Assembly (NCBI GenBank): GCA_017438865.1
Contig: JAFRUN010000006.1
Span: forward strand, 5,552-69,551
Source of the DNA: Clostridia bacterium
Lineage (GTDB): Bacteria > Bacillota > Clostridia > Christensenellales > CAG-138
DNA length: 64,000 nucleotides
Direction of reading: 5' to 3'
This document shows, piece after piece, positions 1,416-15,700 of the stretch. The notes beneath the pieces are model-generated. The model did not search any database. It saw only the letters and a program-made list of their open reading frames with translations, and was not told the DNA's origin. A program made the translations under genes and the position numbers. The stretch's first letter is position 1; the number at the start of each line of letters is the position of its first letter.

Positions 1416-1964
1416 ATGAAACGCATTTTGATATTTGCACTGGGCATGCTGCTTCTGCTGTCCTTCGGCTGCGCGATAAAGCAGCCCGAGACCGAACCGG
1501 CGAAAACGCCCGAACCGGTCGCGACAAACGCGCCCGAGCCGTCCGCGGAGGGCGGACCGGAGCTTGTATTCGATACGGTCACCCTGTACGGCGAGCCGAT
1601 CAGCTCCGATATTCTGCACGAATACGATCTGGTGATCGTCAACTGCTGGGCGGAGTGGTGCGGTCCGTGCGTGGGCGAACTGCCGGAGCTTGAACGGATC
1701 CATCGGGAATATCCGAACGTGCTGATCCTCGGCGTGCTGTCCTTCTCGAATGATCCGGAAGGCGCGAAGGAGACGCTCAGGGACGCGGGCGTCACATATC
1801 CCGCTTTTGAGCCGGCGGGCACGCTCATTGATCTGGTCAGTCAATTCGACGCCATCCCGACCACGATGTTCTTCGACAGCACGGGGAATCAGATCGCGGA
1901 CACGATCGTCGGCAGCATGAATTATAACCAATGGAAAGCGGTCGTGGAGGATCTTTTGCCGTGA
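1416..1964 (+). CDS. TlpA/ResA-like thiol-disulfide oxidoreductase lipoprotein (thioredoxin fold)
   Basis: Signal peptide with lipobox LLSFGC. Redox motif WAEWCGPCVGELPEL. Start at MKRILIF with AAGGAG upstream. Confidence 0.85.
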   Translation: MKRILIFALGMLLLLSFGCAIKQPETEPAKTPEPVATNAPEPSAEGGPELVFDTVTLYGEPISSDILHEYDLVIVNCWAEWCGPCVGELPELERIHREYPNVLILGVLSFSNDPEGAKETLRDAGVTYPAFEPAGTLIDLVSQFDAIPTTMFFDSTGNQIADTIVGSMNYNQWKAVVEDLLP

Positions 1965-2107
1965 AGCGGTCCGTCCGCATCGGAATATGCACCGTGCTCA
2001 TTCTTCTGGGCACGGCTTTTCTGCTGTACGGAATCTTTTCGGGTCAGGTCGCGGGCGTGATCGCAAAGGCGACGCATATTTGTTTGGAGTGTATCGGCAT
2101 TGGCTAA
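1961..2107 (+). CDS. 48-aa membrane peptide with C-terminal CxxC (CD1871A-like)
   Basis: Manual translation: VKRSVRIGICTVLILLGTAFLLYGIFSGQVAGVIAKATHICLECIGIG. The GTG start overlaps the upstream stop (GTGA), and its stop overlaps the next gene. Too short for the ORF track. Confidence 0.55.
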   Translation: MKRSVRIGICTVLILLGTAFLLYGIFSGQVAGVIAKATHICLECIGIG

Positions 2108-2996
2108 GGCGGCGCGTGTAAGGGGAGAATGGAAGCGGCTCGTCGTGCAGGCGGCGGCGTTTCTTCTCCAGAATCCGAAACTGCATCATTTCTTCCTCGG
2201 CACGATCGAAAAGGGCGAAACGAAGTCCGTCTGCGTGCCGGGGCTGAACTGCTATTCCTGTCCGGCGGCGATCGGCGCGTGTCCGATTGGTTCGCTGCAG
2301 AATTCCATGAGCGGCGGCTATAAAAAGCCGGCGTTTCCGTTCTATGTGCTCGGGTTTCTGCTCCTGTTCGGATTGACGCTCGGACGCTGGATCTGCGGCT
2401 GGCTCTGCCCGTTCGGGTGGGTGCAGGACCTCGTTTACCGTATTCCGTTTTTCAAAAAGCTCCGTACGTTCCGCTTCGAGCGGTATTTCCGTTGGCTCAA
2501 ATACGCCGTGCTCGCGGTGCTCGTGATCGGGCTGCCGCTTCTGTCTGCGTTCAAAGGCGTACTCGTGCCGTGGTTCTGCAAGGTGCTTTGCCCGTCCGGC
2601 ACGCTGTTCGGCGGGATCCCGCTGGTCGCGGCGAACGCCGCGCTTAAAAATCAGATCGGCTTCCTCTTCTGGTGGAAGGTCGGCGTACTCTCGGCGCTTC
2701 TTCTGCTGTCGCTGCTTGTTTCGCGTCCGTTCTGCCGGTATCTCTGCCCGCTCGGCGCGATCTACGGACTGTTCAACCGCATTGCGCTGGCGCATCTCAG
2801 CTATGAAAAAGAAACGTGCGTCGACTGCGGAAAGTGCGTTTCGGTCTGTCCGATGGGGATCGATCCGAAAAAACAGTTCGATTCAATAGAGTGCATTCGC
2901 TGCGGACGCTGCGCGCGGGCGTGCCCGACCGACGCGCTCACGGTGCGGTTCGGGCTTCGGAAGAAGGCGGAATCTCACAAAAAATCCACAATATAA
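2100..2996 (+). CDS. Integral-membrane 4Fe-4S polyferredoxin (NapH/MauN/CcoG-like)
   Basis: Three CX3CP motifs (CGWLCPFG, CKVLCPSG, CRYLCPLG), several TM segments, and two ferredoxin motifs (CVDCGKCVSVCP, CIRCGRCARACP). There is an extra N-terminal CVPGLNCYSCPAAIGAC. The TTG start is uncertain; an in-frame GTG at 2145 is possible. Confidence 0.85.
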   Translation: MAKAARVRGEWKRLVVQAAAFLLQNPKLHHFFLGTIEKGETKSVCVPGLNCYSCPAAIGACPIGSLQNSMSGGYKKPAFPFYVLGFLLLFGLTLGRWICGWLCPFGWVQDLVYRIPFFKKLRTFRFERYFRWLKYAVLAVLVIGLPLLSAFKGVLVPWFCKVLCPSGTLFGGIPLVAANAALKNQIGFLFWWKVGVLSALLLLSLLVSRPFCRYLCPLGAIYGLFNRIALAHLSYEKETCVDCGKCVSVCPMGIDPKKQFDSIECIRCGRCARACPTDALTVRFGLRKKAESHKKSTI

Positions 2997-3076
2997 TGCT
3001 TGCAAATTCCGAGAAGTGTGATAGGATATCAAGCGAAGAAAAGACGGGGGATCCCCGCAGGGAAAGAAGGATAACC

Positions 3077-4249
3077 ATGACAAAGATCGATATTTTCAGC
3101 GGTTTCTTGGGCGCCGGCAAAACGACGCTCATCAAAAAACTGATCGCCGAGGCGTACGTCGGCGAAAAGCTCGTTCTGATCGAAAACGAATTCGGCGAGA
3201 TCGGCATCGACGGCGCGTTTCTGCAGGAAGCGGGCATTGAGATCACCGAGATGAACTCCGGCTGCATCTGCTGCTCGCTGGTGGGCGATTTCTCGAAAGC
3301 ATTGAAAAAGGTTCTTGACGAGTTTCATCCGGACCGCATTCTCATCGAGCCGTCCGGCGTCGGAAAACTTTCCGACGTCAAGCGCGCGGTCAGCGGCGTT
3401 CTGACCGACGACGTCGTCATCAACAGCTGCATCGCGGTCGTCGACGCCAAGAAGGCGCGCGTCTACCGCAAGAATTTCGGCGAGTTCTACGTGAACCAGA
3501 TCGAGTCCGCGGACTGCGTCGTTCTGAGCCGTTCGCAGGACGTGAGCGAGGAGCGCCTGAAGGAAGTGCTCGACATGGTGCGCGAGCTGAACGCGGAAGC
3601 GACGGTCGTCGCCGCACCGTGGGACAAGCTGACCGGAAAGGATCTTCTATCCGCGATCGAAAACCGCGACACGCTGAAGGCGTCGATGGAGGCGCTCAAA
3701 AAGGAGCATCATCACCATCACGGCGAGGAGTGCGACGATCTGGAATGCGAGTGCCATCACCACCACCATCACGACGATGATGAGGACGAGCACGAACACC
3801 GTCATCACCACCATCACGACGATGACGATGATGACGACGAGCACGAACACCATCATCATCACGACGATGAGGAATGCGACGATCCCGAATGCGAATGCCA
3901 TCATCATCATCACGACGATGACGAGGATGAGCATGAACACCATCATCATCACCATCACGGACACGACGCGGACGAGGTGTTTTCTAGCTGGGGCATCGAG
4001 ACGATGCACCGCTTCACCGAGGACGAGATCCGCAGCAGGATCGCAAAGCTCGACGATGCCGAAACCTACGGCACCGTGCTTCGCGCCAAGGGCGTGGTCC
4101 CGGCGGCAGACGGCGAAAAGTGGATCCATTTCGACCACGTTCCCGGCGAGGTTGAGGTCAGGAGAGGCGCTGCGGGCGTGATCGGACGGCTGTGCGTGAT
4201 CGGCTCGAAGATGAACGAAGACGCTCTGAAGGCGCTGTTTACGGAGTAA
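3077..4249 (+). CDS. COG0523/CobW-family G3E GTPase metallochaperone with long His/Asp/Cys-rich insert
   Basis: Walker A GFLGAGKTT and the CxCC motif GCICCS, with a CobW C-terminal-like end. True start is MTKIDIF at 3077; the track ORF from 2816 runs through the upstream gene. Confidence 0.9.
   Translation: MTKIDIFSGFLGAGKTTLIKKLIAEAYVGEKLVLIENEFGEIGIDGAFLQEAGIEITEMNSGCICCSLVGDFSKALKKVLDEFHPDRILIEPSGVGKLSDVKRAVSGVLTDDVVINSCIAVVDAKKARVYRKNFGEFYVNQIESADCVVLSRSQDVSEERLKEVLDMVRELNAEATVVAAPWDKLTGKDLLSAIENRDTLKASMEALKKEHHHHHGEECDDLECECHHHHHHDDDEDEHEHRHHHHHDDDDDDDEHEHHHHHDDEECDDPECECHHHHHDDDEDEHEHHHHHHHGHDADEVFSSWGIETMHRFTEDEIRSRIAKLDDAETYGTVLRAKGVVPAADGEKWIHFDHVPGEVEVRRGAAGVIGRLCVIGSKMNEDALKALFTE
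3725..3940 (+). repeat. Internal duplication of a metal-binding module inside the GTPase gene
   Basis: Unit 1 (3725-3799) encodes EECDDLECECHHHHHHDDDEDEHEH. Unit 2 (3869-3940) encodes EECDDPECECHHHHHDDDEDEHEH. They are separated by RHHHHHDDDDDDDEHEHHHHHDD. Confidence 0.8.
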
Positions 4250-4255
4250 GCCGCC

Positions 4256-5197
4256 ATGATGCTTCCGGTCTTCTTATTCACGGGCTTCCTCGATTCGGGC
4301 AAAACGACGTTCATTCAGTCGATGCTCGAGGATCCCGGCTTCAACGAGGGACAGCGCACGCTGGTGCTGCTGTGCGAGGAGGGCGAGGAGGAGCTTGAAC
4401 CCAGGCGCTTTTCGATCAACAACGTCACGATCCGCACGGTCGACAGCGTAGCCGATCTCACGCCCGCCAACATGTCCCTGTGGCAGCGCAAAGCGGCGGC
4501 GACGCGGATCATGATCGAATACAACGGCATGTGGCAGATGAACGACCTCTTCGACCGCCTGCCGGAAAACTGGGGCATCGCGCAGGAGACGATGATGGTC
4601 GACGCCTCGACGATTGCCGCGTTCAACGCGAACATGCGGCAGCTCGTCGTGGACAAGCTGAACACGGCGGAGCTCGTCATCTTCACGCGCGTCGAGCCGG
4701 AGCAGGACAAGATGGAACTGCACAAGCTCGTGCGCGGCATCTCCCGCGGGGCGCAGATCGTCTATGATCTCACCGACGGCACGAGCGTGGAGGACGACAT
4801 TGAGGATCCGCTGCCGTTCGACCTGAACGCGGATATCGTCGAGATCGCGGACCGCGACTATGCGCTGTTCTATCGCGACCTCGTCGACGAGCCCGCAAAA
4901 TACGAGGGCAAGACCGTCCGCTACAAGGGGCTTTGCGCGAACAACATGCGCATGCCGAAGGATACGTTCCTTGCCGGGCGGCACATCATGACCTGCTGCG
5001 AGGCGGACATCGCCTACTGCCCGCTCGTGTGCAAGTGGGACATGGCAAAATCCGTGAAGCACAAGAGCTGGGGCATCGTCGAGGGCACGATCCACGAGAA
5101 GTTCTCAAACATCTACGGCAAGAAGGGGCCGGTTTTAACGATTCATTCTTTTGAACCCGCCTCCGAACCCGAACAGCCGGTTGCGACTTTTTACTGA
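4256..5197 (+). CDS. G3E-like P-loop protein lacking the CxCC motif, with a Cys-rich C-terminal domain (DUF1980/TIGR03943-like)
   Basis: Walker A GFLDSGKTT. No CxCC motif. The C-terminus contains HIMTCCEADIAYCPLVCKWD. It starts 6 nt after the upstream GTPase gene. Confidence 0.75.
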   Translation: MMLPVFLFTGFLDSGKTTFIQSMLEDPGFNEGQRTLVLLCEEGEEELEPRRFSINNVTIRTVDSVADLTPANMSLWQRKAAATRIMIEYNGMWQMNDLFDRLPENWGIAQETMMVDASTIAAFNANMRQLVVDKLNTAELVIFTRVEPEQDKMELHKLVRGISRGAQIVYDLTDGTSVEDDIEDPLPFDLNADIVEIADRDYALFYRDLVDEPAKYEGKTVRYKGLCANNMRMPKDTFLAGRHIMTCCEADIAYCPLVCKWDMAKSVKHKSWGIVEGTIHEKFSNIYGKKGPVLTIHSFEPASEPEQPVATFY

Positions 5198-5205
5198 GAC
5201 GAAAC

Positions 5206-5237
5206 AAAAGCGCTTCCTTTGCGGGAAGCGCTTTTTT
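5206..5237. terminator. Bidirectional rho-independent terminator
   Basis: AAAA-GCGCTTCC-loop-GGAAGCGC-TTTTTT, between convergent genes. Confidence 0.7.
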
Positions 5238-5248
5238 CATTTACGGAT

Positions 5249-6871
5249 TCAGTGTACGTTCAGCGTGACCGCGTACTGCGGAAATTCGGTCGTGGTCGAT
5301 TCGTAATTCCAGGAATTTACGCCGGGCGCGCTCCATTCCGTCACGCCGTATTCGGGATTCATTGTTCCGAGCGGATTCTTTTTCGTGCCGTTGTCGTACT
5401 GGTGGTAAACGTCCATCGTATCGACGGAACGAATGACCGGCACGAACGCGATCGTTTTGATCGAACCCATCATCTCGTACGGAACGTTCTCGATCTCCGA
5501 TAATTCATACACCACGGTGCCGTCGTCTTCCGCTTTGCAGTTATACGGATTGGCAAACCAATCGCCGCTTTCCCCGTTGAGCAGCACCTTGAACGTCAGC
5601 GAATCGGCAAGCGCTTCGCGATCCTCACGCGTCCACGATTCCGGAACGTTGATACGGATCCTGATGTTTTTGATTCCCAGCGTGCTGAATTCCGCACCCT
5701 CCGTATCGGCGGTCATGGTAAGACCTTCCGTCGAAACGCGCTGTTTATACAGCGAAACGCGATCGTCTTCGTAGCGGTCGTCCGGATCTCCGAAATCGAT
5801 GTCAATTTTGCTGACGGCAACCGTTTCCGCGCCCCACACGACGGGAGCATTTGCTTTCACCGCGGTCGATTCGACGTTCTGATACGCTTTCATATTGACG
5901 GTGATCGTGCCGATCTGCGCGTTATAGAGCTCGGTGTCCGGAACGTAGCTGCCGTCGCCGCGGTCCTCCTCGATCACGCTGACGACGTAATAAACCTTCG
6001 CGGTCAGATTGCCGTCGGCGTCGAGGTACTGCTCGTAGTCGTGCGGGAAGATCTGGGCTGCCGCCATCAGACCGTTCTCGGCAAGATACGCGCGGTTTTC
6101 CGCGTCGATCGCCTGCATCTGCTCCTCCGTCTTGTTTTCGACCAGAAGACCGAGGTCGTGCAGTCGGTCCAGATGTCCTTCGATTGACGAAGTCAGGTCG
6201 ATCATGCCGCCGAAACGCTTGCCGTCCGGCATTTCATACATGATCCAGCTTTCCGGCATTTCATACAGCGTCTTTTCGCCGGAAAGATATTCCTCGCCCG
6301 GGCCGCCCTCGTACAGTCCCCAGACCGCGTACGGATCGACGGGAACCCCCGTGGTGCGGCTGCCGGTCCAATGCTCCAGAAGATACAGACCGGAAAGTCC
6401 GTTCAGTCGGATCGTCTGGTAAAGGGTGTTCCCGTCGAACATGGCTTCGCCGAGCTCGACGTCGCAGTTCTCATGCAGAAATGCCGAGACCTTCAGCGCG
6501 CCTTCGCTGTTGACCGCCTCGGAATCGGTGCGGTCGATCGGGATCGTAACGACGTCCTCGTTTGCGGCAGGCGACGCGATCAGCGAATCGAGCTCCGGAA
6601 CGTCTGCCCGCTCGCTCGGGTCTGCGGTCAGATAATCCGCGGGGCGCGAAACGCCGAACCACGAAAGGACCTCGGCTCTCGCCGACGGAATTAAGAAGAC
6701 CGTGCCGAGTGCAAGTACGAGGCACGCCGCGATCGGCAGCAGGATCTTTGTCCACACGATCGGCTGTTTCTGCTTCTGCGCCGCTTCTCTCAATACTGCG
6801 CGGCGGATGGATTCTTTTTTCATCAGCTCGTTTTCCGCAAAGGACAGGAGCTGTTCGGATGTGTTTTTCAT
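5249..6871 (-). CDS. Putative anti-sigma factor: single-pass membrane protein with a roughly 470-aa extracytoplasmic domain
   Basis: ATGA start/stop overlap with the upstream sigma gene. One TM (ILLPIAACLVLALGTVFLI) after a short cytoplasmic N-terminus. Full-length paralog of 46816-48210. Confidence 0.6.
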   Translation of the reverse strand: MKNTSEQLLSFAENELMKKESIRRAVLREAAQKQKQPIVWTKILLPIAACLVLALGTVFLIPSARAEVLSWFGVSRPADYLTADPSERADVPELDSLIASPAANEDVVTIPIDRTDSEAVNSEGALKVSAFLHENCDVELGEAMFDGNTLYQTIRLNGLSGLYLLEHWTGSRTTGVPVDPYAVWGLYEGGPGEEYLSGEKTLYEMPESWIMYEMPDGKRFGGMIDLTSSIEGHLDRLHDLGLLVENKTEEQMQAIDAENRAYLAENGLMAAAQIFPHDYEQYLDADGNLTAKVYYVVSVIEEDRGDGSYVPDTELYNAQIGTITVNMKAYQNVESTAVKANAPVVWGAETVAVSKIDIDFGDPDDRYEDDRVSLYKQRVSTEGLTMTADTEGAEFSTLGIKNIRIRINVPESWTREDREALADSLTFKVLLNGESGDWFANPYNCKAEDDGTVVYELSEIENVPYEMMGSIKTIAFVPVIRSVDTMDVYHQYDNGTKKNPLGTMNPEYGVTEWSAPGVNSWNYESTTTEFPQYAVTLNVH

Positions 6872-7380
6872 AATGCGTTCTCCTCTCCGAAGGTCGTTCT
6901 GAGTTTTTTGCGCACGCGGGCGAGCCGGCTTTTGACGCCTGTCGCCGTCGTGCCCGTTTCTCTTGCAATGTCGCCGAGCTTCATGCCGTATCCGTAATAC
7001 AGAATGAACATGCGCTGCGTGCTTTCCGGTTCCTCCCTGAGGCGTTCGAGAATATCGTCGATCGCCGCGTGATCGAGGGAGAGCTCCTCCACCGAAACGT
7101 CGTCCGGCTCGTCCGAAACGGCTTCGATGGGAAGTTCCTTCCGCTTTGCGCGGAACCGGTAAAAGCTGCTGATCTCATGCTTTAAGGTCATAAAAAGATA
7201 CGCTTTCGGATCGCGGATCGCGCTTGTGCCTTTTCGTGCGAGGGTGCGGTAGAACTTTGCATAGGTATTCTGCAGAAGATCGTGCGCATCCTCGATCGTC
7301 GCTTTCAGAAGGCAGTAGCGCATCAGCTCGCGAAACGTCGCGTCGTATACGGTGTTGAATGTTTCGGTTACATCATTCAT
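6868..7380 (-). CDS. RNA polymerase sigma-70 family (ECF-type) sigma factor
   Basis: Region 2-like LLQNTYAKFYR and a region 4 HTH (KLGDIARETGTTATGVKSRLARVRKKL). Start at MNDVTETF. Confidence 0.85.
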   Translation of the reverse strand: MNDVTETFNTVYDATFRELMRYCLLKATIEDAHDLLQNTYAKFYRTLARKGTSAIRDPKAYLFMTLKHEISSFYRFRAKRKELPIEAVSDEPDDVSVEELSLDHAAIDDILERLREEPESTQRMFILYYGYGMKLGDIARETGTTATGVKSRLARVRKKLRTTFGEENAL

Positions 7381-7454
7381 GGTTTTACTCCTTGCTTTGT
7401 ACGGCCGTTCACCCGTAAAGACGCACGGACAAAGCAAACGGGATCGCGTTCGGA

Positions 7455-7486
7455 GAAAAAAAGGACAGCCGAAGCTGTCCCTTTTT
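7455..7486 (-). terminator. Rho-independent terminator after the zinc-ribbon gene
   Basis: GGACAGC-CGAA-GCTGTCC flanked by A and T runs. Confidence 0.7.
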
Positions 7487-7500
7487 GTGTCGGTTGCGTT

Positions 7501-7779
7501 TTATCTGCCGCGGCGCTGTGCAAAGCACTCGGAGCAATAGATCGGCTTGTCGTTTCTCGGCTGGAACGGTACCTTGGTGGGTTTGCCGCAGGATGCGCAG
7601 ACGGCGTCGAACATTTCGCGGCTCTGCGTGCGCGCCGCGTTCTTGCGTGCTTTCCGGCATTCCGGGCAGCGGACGGGCTCGTTTTTGAAGCCGTTTCTCT
7701 CATAGAATTCCTGTTCGCCCGCGCTGAAAACGAATTCCTTGCCGCAGTCTCTGCAAACCAGTGTCTTGTCTTCGTACAT
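7501..7779 (-). CDS. Zinc-ribbon protein with a CxxC-x17-CxxC domain
   Basis: CRDCGKEF...CPEC followed by CASCGKPTKVPFQPRNDKPIYCSEC, with exactly 17 residues between the second pair of CxxC motifs. Confidence 0.85.
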   Translation of the reverse strand: MYEDKTLVCRDCGKEFVFSAGEQEFYERNGFKNEPVRCPECRKARKNAARTQSREMFDAVCASCGKPTKVPFQPRNDKPIYCSECFAQRRGR

Positions 7780-7813
7780 GATGTTTTGATTCCCTTCGCG
7801 TTTTGGATAATTT

Positions 7814-8033
7814 GATCTCCGTTTTCGGCTGACCTGGTCTTTGACCCCACACTCGCCGGCAGGAGGGTTCGCTCATAAGCATTGCTCCCCACTACTGCCC
7901 CTCTCGACGGAATACCGCCGGCCGGACTTACTCCTAAGCCGCACCGTGCTCACGGACGCTTTGGTCCGCTTACGTGGATCGTTTTGCCTGCGACTGGCTT
8001 CGACTTGCAACCACAGACCCGAATTCGGACATC
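7814..8033 (-). ncRNA. Candidate structured RNA (6S-like architecture, or a structured 5' leader of the zinc-ribbon gene)
   Basis: No credible ORF in the region. The predicted TSS coincides with the 5' arm GAUGUCCG (8033-8026), which pairs 7/8 with CGGAGAUC (7821-7814). Further helices: GGUCU (8019-8015) with AGACC (7840-7836), and GCAGG (7991-7987) with CCUGC (7863-7859). Local hairpin at 7920-7905. G-U pairs form only in the minus-strand reading. Confidence 0.3.
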
Positions 8034-8812: not shown

Positions 8813-9841
<1,029 letters not shown>

Positions 9842-11929: not shown

Positions 11930-12982
11930 ATGAAAAAAGTTTTGGCATTGGTGCTGGTACTCATGCTTACGCTCGGCTGCTTTGCCGCGTGCAAGAAGGA
12001 TAAACCTGCAGACGCGACGCCCGCGCCCGCAAATCCCGGAACGGAAGCGACGCCCGAACCGCCGTCCACCGAGCCGGACAAGACCAGAGTCGCGATCGTC
12101 GTTGCAGGTACGTTCGGCGACCGCTCGTTCTATGATTCTTCGAAAGAGGGCGGCGAACGCCTTGCGAAGGATTTCGACACGCTCGACGTGAAGTTTGTGG
12201 AGTGCAACAACGAAAACCACACCGTCCGCATGCAGAACGCGGCGGCGCAGGCGGACATCGTCGTGTGCGTCGGCTGGGAGTTCTATGACATCGAGACCGT
12301 CGCGCCGGAGTTCCCGGACGTCAAGTTCATCTGGATCGACAATGCGACCGAGACGGCCGTTCCGAATCTGCTGAACATCGTTTATGCGCAGAACGAGGGC
12401 TCGTTCCTTGCGGGTTACATCGCGGCGGCGATGAGCAAGACGGGCACGGTCGGCGCGGTCGGCGGCGAGGACAGCATCACGATCAACGACTTTATCGTGG
12501 GCTATAAGCAGGGCGCGGCGTATTTCAGCGACGCGATCAAGGTCGAGGTCAACTACACCAATGATTACGACGATCCGGCGAAGGGCAAGGACTGCGCAAA
12601 GGTCCTCCACGACCGCGGTGCGGACGTCATCTTCCAGATCGCCTCGAAGGCGGGCGACGGCGTGTTTGAAGCGGCGCAGGAGGGCGGCTTCTATGCGATC
12701 GGCGTCGACTCCGATCAGAAGTACATCAACGACGCCGTCATCATCTGCTCGATGAAGAAGGAGGTCGGCAAATCGATCTACGACGCGATCGCGGAGATCG
12801 TTTCGGGCAACAATTCCAAGCTCGGCACGACCTGGGTTGCGGATATGTCGAACGGCTACGTCGGCATCGGCTACGGCGAAGATGGCGCAACGCAGCAGAT
12901 CCCGGACGATATCAAGGCGAAGGTGGAAGAGCTGAGGGCGAAGATCGTCTCCGGCGAGATCAAGGTCGACACCACCAGATAA
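11930..12982 (+). CDS. BMP-family (Med/PnrA-like) ABC transporter substrate-binding lipoprotein, probable nucleoside binding
   Basis: Lipobox LTLGCFAAC. The sequence has the BMP-family pattern (VGWEF..., GGEDSITINDFIVGYKQGA, YAIGVDSDQ). Confidence 0.9.
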   Translation: MKKVLALVLVLMLTLGCFAACKKDKPADATPAPANPGTEATPEPPSTEPDKTRVAIVVAGTFGDRSFYDSSKEGGERLAKDFDTLDVKFVECNNENHTVRMQNAAAQADIVVCVGWEFYDIETVAPEFPDVKFIWIDNATETAVPNLLNIVYAQNEGSFLAGYIAAAMSKTGTVGAVGGEDSITINDFIVGYKQGAAYFSDAIKVEVNYTNDYDDPAKGKDCAKVLHDRGADVIFQIASKAGDGVFEAAQEGGFYAIGVDSDQKYINDAVIICSMKKEVGKSIYDAIAEIVSGNNSKLGTTWVADMSNGYVGIGYGEDGATQQIPDDIKAKVEELRAKIVSGEIKVDTTR

Positions 12983-12993
12983 GGATCCGTAAC

Positions 12994-13030
12994 GCGGAAG
13001 CTGTCTTTTCGGGCGGCTTCCGCCTTTTTT
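12994..13030 (+). terminator. Intra-operon hairpin/attenuator after the binding-protein gene
   Basis: GCGGAAGC-loop-GCTTCCGC followed by CTTTTTT. Confidence 0.55.
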
Positions 13031-13058
13031 ACATGGCGAAAAGGGAGGGACAAAGGTT

Positions 13059-14588
13059 TTGACGGACGAGATCCGGTTTGAACACATTTCCATGGAATTC
13101 CCGGGGGTGCTCGCAAACGACGACATTTCGCTGTCGATCAAAAACGGCGAGGTGTTCGCGCTGGTCGGCGAAAACGGCGCGGGCAAGTCGACGCTGATGA
13201 ACATCCTGTACGGCATCAATACGCCGACGGCGGGGAGCTTATATGTGCGCGGCGAAAAGATCACGGACTTCAGCCCGAAAGCGGCGATCGACCGCGGTAT
13301 CGGCATGGTGCACCAGCACTTCATGCTGGTCCCGTCGTTCACGGTCGCGCAGAACATCGTTCTGGGCCGCGAGCCGAAGAACGCGGGCGTCCTGTTCGAC
13401 AACCGAAAAGCGGAGAAACTCACGCGCGAGCTTGTGAAGGAGTACGGGCTTGAGGTCGATCCGTCCGCCGAGGTGCGCGATATCTCCGTGGGACTGCAGC
13501 AGCGCGTCGAGATCCTGAAAACACTCTACCGCGGCGCGGACATTCTGATCCTCGACGAGCCGACGGCGGTTTTGACGCCGCAGGAAACGGACGAGCTCTT
13601 CGACGTCATCCGGCGCATCGTGCGTGAAAAAGAGATGACGGTCATCATCATCACGCACAAGCTCTACGAGGTCATGGCGATCTCCGACCGCGTCGGCGTC
13701 ATGCGGCAGGGAAAGCTCATCGGCGTCGAGAATACAAAGGACGTCGACGAAAAGAAGCTCGCGTCCATGATGGTCGGGCGTCCCGTGCTGTTCGATCATC
13801 TTGAGAAGACCGGCGAACCCGGCGAAGTCGCGATCGAGGTCGACGATCTTTTCGTTGCGGACAACCGCGGACTTCCCGCGGTGCGCGGCGTATCGCTGCA
13901 GGTGAAAAAAGGCGAGGTGCTCGGCATTGCGGCGATCGAGGGCAACGGCCAGAGCGAGCTGCTTGAAGCGATCACCGGCATGCGCAAAATCAACCGCGGT
14001 CATGTGACGGTCTGCGGGAAGGACGCGACGGACAAGACGCCCGGCGAGATCCGCGCTTTGGGACTTTCGCATGTGCCGGAGGACCGGCTTTCCACCGGCG
14101 TCGACAAGGTCGCCTCGGTCACGGACAATCTTCTGGTCGGCAGGCAAAAGGAAAAGCGCTTCAACCTGTTCGGCTTCCATCAGCGGCGCAGCACCGTCGA
14201 ACGCTACGCCAAGGAGCTTTATCAAAAATTCGACATCCGCGGCGCGGGCATCCATACCGAGGTCGGCTCGATGTCCGGCGGCAATATGCAGAAGGTCGTC
14301 GTCGCGCGCGAATTCAGCTTCGATACGCCGGTGCTGGTCATTTCGCAGCCGACGCGCGGCGTGGACATCGGCGCGATGGAGTTTTTCCACACGCGCATCA
14401 TCGAGCAGCGCAACGCGGGTGCGGCGATTCTTCTGAGCTCTGCGGACCTCGACGAGGTCTTCCGCCTGTCCGACCGCATCATCACGCTTTACGAGGGTAA
14501 GATCACCGGCGAATTCAAAGCGTCCGAGATCACCAAGGAGGAGATCGGTCTCTACATGACCGGCACCGGAGAGGGGGCGAAGGCATGA
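13059..14588 (+). CDS. ABC transporter ATP-binding protein (duplicated ATPase, sugar/nucleoside type)
   Basis: Two ABC cassettes: GENGAGKST/LILDEPT and MSGGNMQK. TTG start with GGGAGGG upstream. Confidence 0.9.
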   Translation: MTDEIRFEHISMEFPGVLANDDISLSIKNGEVFALVGENGAGKSTLMNILYGINTPTAGSLYVRGEKITDFSPKAAIDRGIGMVHQHFMLVPSFTVAQNIVLGREPKNAGVLFDNRKAEKLTRELVKEYGLEVDPSAEVRDISVGLQQRVEILKTLYRGADILILDEPTAVLTPQETDELFDVIRRIVREKEMTVIIITHKLYEVMAISDRVGVMRQGKLIGVENTKDVDEKKLASMMVGRPVLFDHLEKTGEPGEVAIEVDDLFVADNRGLPAVRGVSLQVKKGEVLGIAAIEGNGQSELLEAITGMRKINRGHVTVCGKDATDKTPGEIRALGLSHVPEDRLSTGVDKVASVTDNLLVGRQKEKRFNLFGFHQRRSTVERYAKELYQKFDIRGAGIHTEVGSMSGGNMQKVVVAREFSFDTPVLVISQPTRGVDIGAMEFFHTRIIEQRNAGAAILLSSADLDEVFRLSDRIITLYEGKITGEFKASEITKEEIGLYMTGTGEGAKA

Positions 14589-15700
14589 AGGCGTTTTTCC
14601 TGCGGCTGAAGCAGAAACTTGACTTCGGCTATCTCGTCGCGCTTCTGATCAGTCTCGGCGTCGCGCTTCTGATCGGCACCGTGATCCTGACGGTCACCGG
14701 CTTCGACACCGGCAAGGCGCTCGGCGCGCTGATCGGCGGCTCGTTCTCGTCCAGACAGTATTTCGGCAACATGCTCGAATACGCAATGGTGCTGTGCCTT
14801 TGCGGTCTCGCCTGCGACGTCGGCAGCCGCGCCGGCATCTTCAACGTCGGCGGCGAAGGGCAGCTCATCCTCGGCGCGCTGTTTGCCGCGCAGATCGGCG
14901 TCTGGCTCAAGGATGCCTCCCCGTGGATCGCAATCCCGTGCGCCGCGCTCGGCGCCGTTCTCGTCGGCGGATTCTACGCGTTCATCCCGGGCGTATTGAA
15001 GGTCAAGCTGAAGGTCAACGAGGTCATCACCACGATCATGCTGAACTCGGTCGCGGTGTTCATCTGCGGCTACTTCTCCAAGGGCCCGTGGAAGAATCCG
15101 AGCCCGCGCGTCGTCAGCGACACGAGTCCGCTCGATCGTTCGTTCATGTTCTCAAAGCTCATTCCGAGCTCGAATCTGTCCACGGCGATCATCGTTTCGG
15201 CGGTGCTGACGTTCCTTGTGTGGTACATCCTGCAGAAGACGACCAAGGGCTATGAAATGCGGCTGACGGGCGACAACCCGCGGTTTGCGCGGTTTGCCGG
15301 GATCAAAGCGGACCGGATCGTGATCGTCGCCATGGTGATCTCCGGCATGATGTGCGGTCTCGTCGGCATGTTCCGCGTATACGGCGCGGCGGGCAAGTAT
15401 CAGTCGTCGATCTCGAACGATTATTATTTCGAAGGGCTGATGGTCGCGATGATCGCGCAGTATCAGCCGATCCCGACGATCATCATTTCCCTGATCTTCG
15501 CGATCCTTCGCTGGGGCGCGATCTTCATGGAGGACACCGTCGGCGTGCCGATCCAGATCTACTGGATCATTCAGACGGCGGTCATCTTCTGCATGGCGGG
15601 CGAAAAGGGCGTCCGCGCCGCAATTCACAAGGCAAGGGAGACGCGCGCCGCCAAGCGCGAGATCGAAAAACGCAGGGAAGGGGGTGCGGTCCGTGAATGA
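14585..15700 (+). CDS. ABC transporter permease
   Basis: Polytopic. 4-nt overlap with the ATPase gene. Confidence 0.9.
   Translation: MKAFFLRLKQKLDFGYLVALLISLGVALLIGTVILTVTGFDTGKALGALIGGSFSSRQYFGNMLEYAMVLCLCGLACDVGSRAGIFNVGGEGQLILGALFAAQIGVWLKDASPWIAIPCAALGAVLVGGFYAFIPGVLKVKLKVNEVITTIMLNSVAVFICGYFSKGPWKNPSPRVVSDTSPLDRSFMFSKLIPSSNLSTAIIVSAVLTFLVWYILQKTTKGYEMRLTGDNPRFARFAGIKADRIVIVAMVISGMMCGLVGMFRVYGAAGKYQSSISNDYYFEGLMVAMIAQYQPIPTIIISLIFAILRWGAIFMEDTVGVPIQIYWIIQTAVIFCMAGEKGVRAAIHKARETRAAKREIEKRREGGAVRE

Follow-up and report, generated by a model that had tools for sequence, protein, structure and literature searches.

The 64,000-nucleotide (nt) stretch of Clostridia bacterium DNA analysed here, referred to below as the window, carries five co-directional genes (g1 to g5), the first three of which recur together as a trio: g1 encodes an exported thioredoxin-fold lipoprotein, g2 a membrane micro-protein of 48 amino acids (aa) with a CxxC tail, and g3 a membrane polyferredoxin. 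On balance, the trio is probably an iron-sulphur (Fe-S)-driven functional analogue of CcdA/DsbD, derived from a NapH-type protein, which reduces the exported thioredoxin. To our knowledge, DsbD/CcdA is the only established bacterial route of reducing power to exported thioredoxin-like proteins. The original prediction, made from the letters of the window, proposed that the polyferredoxin and the CxxC peptide replace CcdA/DsbD for the exported thioredoxin, and the gene linkage, the scarcity of CcdA and the topology described below all agree with this core idea. Its extension to a single five-gene system, in which the two P-loop proteins encoded by g4 and g5 would reduce or insert metal in concert with the trio, is not supported by the comparison of loci.

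A conserved gene trio

A genome scan covering one genome per GTDB species, with the g3 alignment as query, yielded 585 confirmed relatives among the 600 matching stretches listed, and 80 loci were kept for local analysis. Overall, 87 loci with this polyferredoxin subfamily were examined, of which 83 are non-redundant and 76 have enough flanking DNA. In every one of the 87, a peptide of the CD1871A family lies directly upstream of the polyferredoxin on the same strand. The two genes are translationally coupled: the end of the peptide gene overlaps the start of the polyferredoxin gene in 68 of the 83 non-redundant loci, and in 49 of them the overlap is the identical 8 nt found in the window. A co-directional CxxC protein of the Redoxin/TlpA type is encoded next to the pair in 70 of the 76 adequately flanked loci, upstream in 49 and downstream in 21. 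Since the arrangement is repeated in 83 non-redundant loci drawn from many clostridial families, it lies far beyond chance, and the expectation that g1 to g3 travel together is thereby borne out. The nearest relatives tell the same story on a finer scale: a locus whose g3 homologue is 75% identical has all five genes together with the same divergent GntR/ABC genes, and homologues at 61% and 58% identity are accompanied by the thioredoxin and the 48-aa open reading frame (ORF) only, at another chromosomal place.

CcdA was searched for with a regular expression and with jackhmmer, seeded with the CcdA of the Christensenellaceae locus L046, across the 64-kilobase (kb) window and the 87 loci. As had been claimed, there is no CcdA/DsbD in the operon, nor is there any elsewhere in the window, and a single one of the 87 loci contains one, in a ccdA-trx-msrAB operon of its own; a canonical CcdA is thus not consistently encoded beside these thioredoxins.

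g1 (1416-1964, forward strand like all five genes; 182 aa) follows the ribosome-binding site (RBS) AAAGGAGA and has the features of the TlpA-like class of extracytoplasmic reductants, namely a thioredoxin fold, the active site WCGPC and a lipobox (LLSFGC). Its Pfam matches to Thioredoxin (32.1 bits) and AhpC-TSA (28 bits) both pass the cut-off, and its scores against the equivalog models of ResA, StoA, TlpA and DsbE (34.2, 38.6, 31.2 and 33.3 bits) stay below the 170, 210, 230 and 123 bits that those models demand; its membership is that of the general thioredoxin/AhpC-TSA superfamily only. Among solved structures, it comes nearest to TlpA-like proteins, StoA and thioredoxins. Among the partner thioredoxins of the other loci, 62 of 73 carry a lipobox and the remaining 11 a hydrophobic N-terminus, so that all are predicted to be exported, one of them with a cell-surface repeat domain; their active sites read CGPC, CPPC, CSPC, CTPC, CKPC and similar. 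An exported MsrAB lipoprotein is encoded directly downstream of the thioredoxin in two loci (L032 and L041), and a convergent MsrA gene is found in a third (L003).

g2 (1961-2107) starts with a GTG within the GTGA junction to g1 and encodes a micro-protein with a single transmembrane (TM) helix, whose tail, KA-x2-ICLECIGIG, stops exactly at the C-terminus. It is a member of the NCBIfam family NF040920 (CD1871A family CXXC motif-containing protein), with 49 bits against a cut-off of 32 (E 4e-13) and a match that spans profile positions 2-38 of 38. All 83 unique peptides have a basic N-terminus and a single TM helix, and the tail, with the consensus G-x2-RGE-x3-VL-x-KA-x2-IC[LM]EC[IV]GIG, forms the end of the protein in each case; counted from the C-terminus, Cys-8, Glu-6, Cys-5, Gly-3 and Gly-25 are invariant or nearly so in these sequences. 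A word-indexed peptide search reached 31 close relatives, and an exhaustive profile search was used instead, which places the family at 1465 clusters at 50% identity, nearly all of 44-90 aa. A few proteins of 230-270 aa carry the CD1871A module as a fifth TM helix plus tail, and the K/R-rich loops of these five-TM variants predict that the CxxC tail lies outside. In one 165-aa sequence (P0396), a CD1871A tail follows the N-terminus of an exported MsrAB lipoprotein; this is probably a chimera that arose by assembly or recombination from an L032-like locus. NCBI has already catalogued the peptide family, without a function.

g3 (2100-2996; 298 aa) begins with a TTG codon inside the 8-nt overlap with g2. 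Its cysteines comprise a Cys4 cluster (C45, C51, C54, C61), three CX3CP motifs (C99/103, C160/164 and C212/216) and two CxxCxxCxxxCP [4Fe-4S] motifs (C240-250 and C265-275), and all 18 are 100% conserved in 83 sequences. The cysteine motifs listed in the original prediction are all present, save that the N-terminal cluster is C45-x5-C51-x2-C54-x6-C61, with a final spacing of six residues and not five. Two Fer4_5 matches (57 bits, cut-off 22) and two Fer4 matches assign g3 to Pfam families, and four TM helices, CX3CP after TM2 and TM4 and a C-terminal 2x[4Fe-4S] domain place it among the modules of the NapH/NosR type. It is not a NapH equivalog (TIGR02163, NapH/MauN, 79.1 bits against 213; NF007013, quinol dehydrogenase NapH, 71.8 against 234), and there are no nap genes near it. 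Nor is it a CcoG/RdxA/FixG protein (TIGR02745), for which it scores 33 bits against 316.7, through the ferredoxin motif only, and none of the loci contains cco genes. The Pfam and NCBIfam profile searches, run for all five proteins, agree with every domain call that had been made.

The genetic surroundings offer some hints as to function. In about 18 loci, genes for an OmpR-type response regulator and a histidine kinase stand divergently beside the trio (among them L021, L029, L032, L036, L045, L062, L081 and the Blautia locus L038, at 1849-7861, a region that also holds ParA/ParB-like genes). BlaI/CopY-family regulators, paired with a BlaR1 M56 sensor, are encoded upstream of the peptide-polyferredoxin pair in L073 and L051. 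CD1871 of C. difficile 630, the gene after which the family is named, lies within a conjugative-transposon region (PMC12772354). Taken together, the regulators, the ParA/ParB-like genes and the location of CD1871 suggest an inducible, sometimes mobile, envelope-stress function.

Topology and the proposed electron path

The alignment of g3 with E. coli NapH is collinear at 26% identity. The first and third CX3CP motifs (C99/103 and C212/216) and both ferredoxin motifs match NapH counterparts, the Cys4 cluster aligns to the NapH TM1-TM2 loop with GN-YSS and P..LQ kept, and the second CX3CP motif is an insertion in the TM3-TM4 loop. Reporter fusions made by Brondijk and colleagues in 2004 reportedly placed both of these NapH loops in the periplasm and both termini in the cytoplasm. 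The six cysteines specific to the g3 subfamily are therefore predicted on the outer face of the membrane, together with the two of the peptide. AlphaFold2 gave an unusable prediction for g3 with a 12-sequence alignment (predicted local distance difference test, pLDDT, 48.6) and a better one with 79 sequences (pLDDT 76, predicted template modelling score 0.74), and solved homologues cover the ferredoxin domain of g3 and none of its membrane part.

A further view of the two sides of the membrane comes from a natural fusion. In the locus L094, a 507-aa protein (5784-7307) consists of the polyferredoxin, the basic segment KTKNRRTVTR, one TM helix, a linker and a thioredoxin domain with the active site WCTPC; as a single helix intervenes, the ferredoxin domain is placed inside and the thioredoxin outside. 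The fusion is also a direct physical tie between the two proteins. The fusion gene is preceded by one for a 258-aa five-TM protein ending in ICTECVGLG, a variant architecture (L094 5001-7307) that is also found in L095 and L096. Among the longer g3 homologues there is no fusion of peptide and polyferredoxin: of three candidates, two (P0109 and P0114) result from internal duplication or from chimeric assembly, and the third (P0040) from read-through at the C-terminus. The peptide tail predicted outside, the g3 cysteine motifs on loops that correspond to periplasmic loops of NapH and the opposite-sided fusion are compatible with an outward relay of electrons, as the original prediction needed them to be.

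On this basis the following path can be proposed. The cytoplasmic C-terminal 2x[4Fe-4S] domain of g3 would receive electrons from a general donor of low potential, most likely ferredoxin; the electrons would then cross the NapH-type four-helix membrane module by way of the CX3CP cysteine pairs and arrive at an outer cysteine-rich site, to which the Cys4 loop, the additional CX3CP motif and the CxxC tail of g2 would contribute. From there the CxxC of the g1 lipoprotein would be reduced, which in turn would repair or reduce exported proteins, exported MsrAB being one likely client. We infer ferredoxin as the donor because no dedicated donor gene is conserved near the trio, and the outward direction from thermodynamics and the thioredoxin-type active sites. 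With ferredoxin at about -400 mV, transfer to a disulfide is energetically favourable. At the outer site, the cysteines may act as dithiols or may bind metal or Fe-S. For the CX3CP motifs of NosR and NapH, a redox-active dithiol was thought a likelier role than that of an Fe-S ligand, since only about 8 Fe were measured per NosR (PMC5928378). As the thioredoxin needs a reductant, its usual supplier is missing nearby, MsrAB is linked to some loci and the CX3CP motifs are likelier dithiols than Fe-S ligands, a path from Fe-S to thioredoxin is the best supported.

Several observations weigh against this reading. In six of the 76 fully flanked loci, no co-directional thioredoxin gene lies next to the pair: four have none within 8 kb, one has a convergent gene, and one has a thioredoxin in a CcdA operon only. 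The peptide-polyferredoxin pair may therefore serve other acceptors as well. The last of these loci, L046, carries both the pair and, 4.4 kb away, a CcdA system, namely an operon of ccdA, a thioredoxin with a CSIC active site and an msrAB lipoprotein gene, and the two systems are therefore not strictly alternative. The same locus has a second, different NapH-like gene directly downstream of the pair, all of this within 7 kb (8893-9735 and 12393-14838). The linkage to MsrAB is confined to about four loci. The first membrane helix of g3 is weakly hydrophobic (mean Kyte-Doolittle value +0.48) and loop 1 has a net charge of +3.5, for which reason charge bias alone cannot separate the NapH-like topology from one in which only the first CX3CP motif is outside; the positive-inside count is about +6 in both, and homology to NapH was used instead. 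In either topology, the outer side is predicted to hold the peptide CxxC along with a conserved cysteine pair of g3, and the inner side the ferredoxin domain. Lastly, in line with the claim that no counterpart has been characterised, searches of the literature on CD1871A, on DUF1980/TIGR03943/COG3689 and on polyferredoxin with thioredoxin and CcdA found no paper on the system, nor does a solved structure cover it.

A broader formulation can be advanced more tentatively, and we would put it at somewhat short of an even chance: that the pair of peptide and polyferredoxin represents a transmembrane disulfide reductase of a new class, derived from NapH/NosR and unrelated to DsbD/CcdA, driven by ferredoxin and present in many strictly anaerobic Clostridia. 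This formulation would take in the copies on conjugative elements with their two-component regulator, and the pair may also dispose of electrons outward, onto disulfides in the environment. If true, a second, unrelated route would explain how oxidised surface proteins, such as the clients of MsrAB, are repaired in gut Clostridia, among which the system is common, the CX3CP motifs of the NapH/NosR/RdhC family would gain a concrete biochemical role, and a micro-protein family that has so far merely been named would gain a function.

The same cysteines invite a different, in our estimate unlikely, explanation, according to which the ten non-ferredoxin cysteines of g3 and the two of the peptide bind three more [4Fe-4S] clusters, the peptide completing one of them, and the whole acts as a wire whose outlet is the thioredoxin or another acceptor. 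The arithmetic is attractive, as twelve cysteines make exactly three clusters; all of them are invariant, several precede a proline as ferredoxin ligands do, and the tail of the peptide, CxEC-x-G-x-G, looks like one half of a ferredoxin motif. A NapH-like topology, however, splits these cysteines across both faces of the membrane, and we know of no route by which Fe-S clusters are assembled in the outer loops of a Sec-inserted protein. NosR, moreover, which has two CX3CP motifs, holds only about 8 Fe (PMC5928378).

The g4-g5 pair and the remaining alternatives

Downstream of g3, the gene order is g4 (3077-4249; 390 aa) after a gap of 80 nt, and g5 (4256-5197; 313 aa) after a further 6 nt, followed by an intrinsic terminator (5206-5235) with a 13-bp stem that includes six GC pairs and then a T run; the five co-directional ORFs, their overlaps and gaps and the single terminator are all as originally described. 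g4 is a COG0523 GTPase with the motif GCICCS (a CxCC) and Pfam matches to cobW (PF02492, 136 bits) and CobW_C (PF07683, 36.6 bits); against the equivalogs of the ZigA, CobW and YjiA type it scores 82, 86.5 and 85.7 bits, below the 600, 332 and 361 required. Its His/Asp/Cys insert of about 92 aa contains two ECxxxECECHHHH units and corresponds to a tandem repeat in the DNA (3754-3976) with a unit of 45-51 nt. Weak Rfam matches to micro-RNA families at 3754-3956 are artefacts of this His-codon repeat, and several public metagenome contigs (loci L088-L090, L092 and L093) break exactly inside it, leaving a CobW_C fragment only. g5 is a degenerate paralogue without CxCC and without CobW_C, in which a P-loop domain (Walker A present; cobW 32 bits) is joined to a soluble DUF1980_C domain with CCxxD (PF21537, 75 bits against 25.9); its C-terminus reads MTCCEAD...CPLVC. 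With TIGR03943 it scores 80.9 bits, short of the cut-off of 88.8 and over profile positions 90-220 of 221 only. g5 has no solved relative, and no COG0701-type permease lies next to g4-g5, either in the window or in those relative loci that were annotated. As a separate observation, g1 matches NF041054 ('ResA-like WAxxUGC selenoprotein') below threshold, and g4 and g5 likewise match NF041053 ('CobW-related selenoprotein'); the two are neighbouring accessions.

It is improbable that all five genes constitute one system, with metal reduction or insertion tied to the outward reduction of thiols. In its favour, the genes are co-directional, and the window has no terminator between g3 and g4, so that read-through from g3 into g4 may occur. 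The same layout occurs in L001/L002 and L087, and the unrelated loci L053 and L082 hold the g4-g5 pair 4-7 kb from the trio, somewhat more often than chance would have it; CcoG, a relative of g3, is a cupric reductase (PMC7558416). Yet g4-g5 adjoin the trio only in the window and its near relatives (L001/L002 and L087) and are absent within 8 kb from 78 of the 80 trio loci of the genome scan, and in L053 and L082 the pair lies on the opposite strand. In L082, it is part of an operon with a His-rich membrane protein, a 126-aa product with the stretch HHHHHDHHH that is encoded directly upstream in the same orientation (14667-15047, reverse strand). Conversely, the pair stands without the trio at the corresponding, syntenic site of L091 (g5 identity 81%), before the same downstream anti-sigma/ECF-sigma genes as in the window. 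It is noteworthy that g5 is always preceded by a g4 homologue (in the window, L001, L053, L082 and L091).

The spacer between g3 and g4 tells against the five-gene system in the same way. It contains a promoter-like site (3000-3076) composed of TTGCAA at 3000-3005, a spacing of 16 nt and TGn-TAGGAT at 3019-3027, followed by a leader hairpin (3045-3057) and an RBS. This layout precedes g4 regardless of the trio: it is also present in L001, where the trio is present, and in L091, where the trio is absent and the sequence changes fall in the hairpin loop. The spacer has no Rfam match, and no Zur-box-like palindrome was seen by eye between g3 and g4. g4-g5 thus probably have their own promoter, judging from these elements, and are a separate paired metallochaperone unit of the COG0523 type that was probably placed beside the trio by rearrangement. 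Proximity within 8 kb in three independent lineages of about 80 is slightly above chance and does not support coupling to the trio. The case is a caution against taking adjacency for coupling.

We likewise give little credence to a metal-handling role of the trio, in which g3 would be a reductase of cupric or other metal ions akin to CcoG/YccM and the peptide and the lipoprotein would handle the metal, or a metal chaperone, outside. TlpA reduces the thiols of copper chaperones in rhizobia, COG0523 genes adjoin the trio in the window, and BlaI/CopY-family regulators stand upstream in L073 and L051, although these BlaI-like genes are partnered with the BlaR1 M56 sensor and not with copper genes. 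CcoG belongs to the same broad family as g3 and has two [4Fe-4S] clusters and Cu sites (PMC7558416), yet the CcoG score of g3 is far too low, as given above. Genes for a copper ATPase, CopZ or an oxidase do not recur near the loci; the recurrent partner is a CxxC protein with a thioredoxin fold, sometimes with an exported MsrAB.

It is very unlikely that g3 works as a quinol-linked module that draws its electrons from membrane quinol, as has been proposed for NapGH. The host lineages are mostly fermentative gut Clostridia, which generally lack quinones. Although g3 is collinear with NapH, whose membrane module was proposed to oxidise quinol (PMC5928378), its ferredoxin domain is fully conserved, and the potential of menaquinol drives the reduction of a thioredoxin-type CxxC poorly.

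The reverse direction, a DsbA/DsbB-like formation of disulfides that drains electrons inward, is scarcely credible: DsbB and VKOR also work through a membrane-proximal CxxC, but the active sites here are of the thioredoxin/TlpA type (CGPC, CPPC, CSPC) and not CPHC, low-potential [4Fe-4S] domains are poor sinks for disulfide formation, and the association with MsrAB implies a reductant.

Two further features of the window deserve mention. Upstream of g1, an intergenic region that also holds the g1 promoter contains a palindrome, ATAATTGTG-N13-CACAATTAT (about 1279-1309), with an identical copy in L001 (6180-6208). The divergent ABC-transporter/GntR operon has a perfect promoter (TTGACA-16-TATAAT) with which the palindrome overlaps, and the palindrome is probably the GntR operator. 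On the reverse strand, a full-length raiA RNA motif (Rfam RF03072, 192 bits against a gathering score of 101) occupies 7820-8027, a short way upstream of a 92-aa zinc-ribbon gene (7501-7779, reverse strand).

Comparison with known systems

The second unit of the locus resembles catalogued proteins in both of its parts. g4 shares the cobW and CobW_C domains, CxCC and a His-rich stretch with the COG0523 chaperones (ZigA, YciC/ZagA, YeiR, CobW). g5 shares DUF1980_C with its CCxxD with the YcgQ-type permease subunit TIGR03943/DUF1980, whose two N-terminal TM helices are replaced in g5 by the P-loop domain.

For the trio, ferredoxin:thioredoxin reductase and HdrB/DsrK embody the same concept of leading one-electron Fe-S chemistry to a two-electron disulfide; the likeness is one of analogy only, as no sequence relation was detected, and these enzymes are soluble or located at the cytoplasmic face, unlike the trio. 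DsbB and VKOR likewise present a small membrane element with an outer CxxC to a partner with a thioredoxin fold, but they are oxidising, quinone-dependent and non-homologous. A close functional parallel is provided by the CcdA-ResA/StoA system of Bacillus and by CcdA1/2-Etrx1/2-MsrAB2 of Streptococcus pneumoniae (PMC3914529), which, like the trio, have an exported TlpA-like CxxC lipoprotein that needs a transmembrane reductant; in the latter, an MsrAB lipoprotein accompanies the thioredoxin, as in some trio loci. The membrane part is non-homologous, with a NapH-type Fe-S protein and a CxxC micro-protein in the place of CcdA/DsbD, and the electron source is cytoplasmic thioredoxin in CcdA/DsbD and presumably ferredoxin or another Fe-S donor in the trio.

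By descent, the trio belongs with the membrane modules NapH, NosR, RdhC (PceC), MauN and CcoG, which have four TM helices, two CX3CP motifs and, in some cases, a C-terminal 2x[4Fe-4S] domain, and which, as would g3, pass electrons to a partner at the outer face. NapH has the TM-CX3CP units and both ferredoxin motifs in common with g3, as well as a TM2-TM3 loop rich in K/R; g3 adds four cysteines in outer loop 1 and a third CX3CP motif in outer loop 2. What sets g3 apart from all modules of this type is its company: an obligate 48-aa CxxC partner and, at the outer face, a thioredoxin fold in the place that NapG, NosZ or a dehalogenase takes elsewhere.

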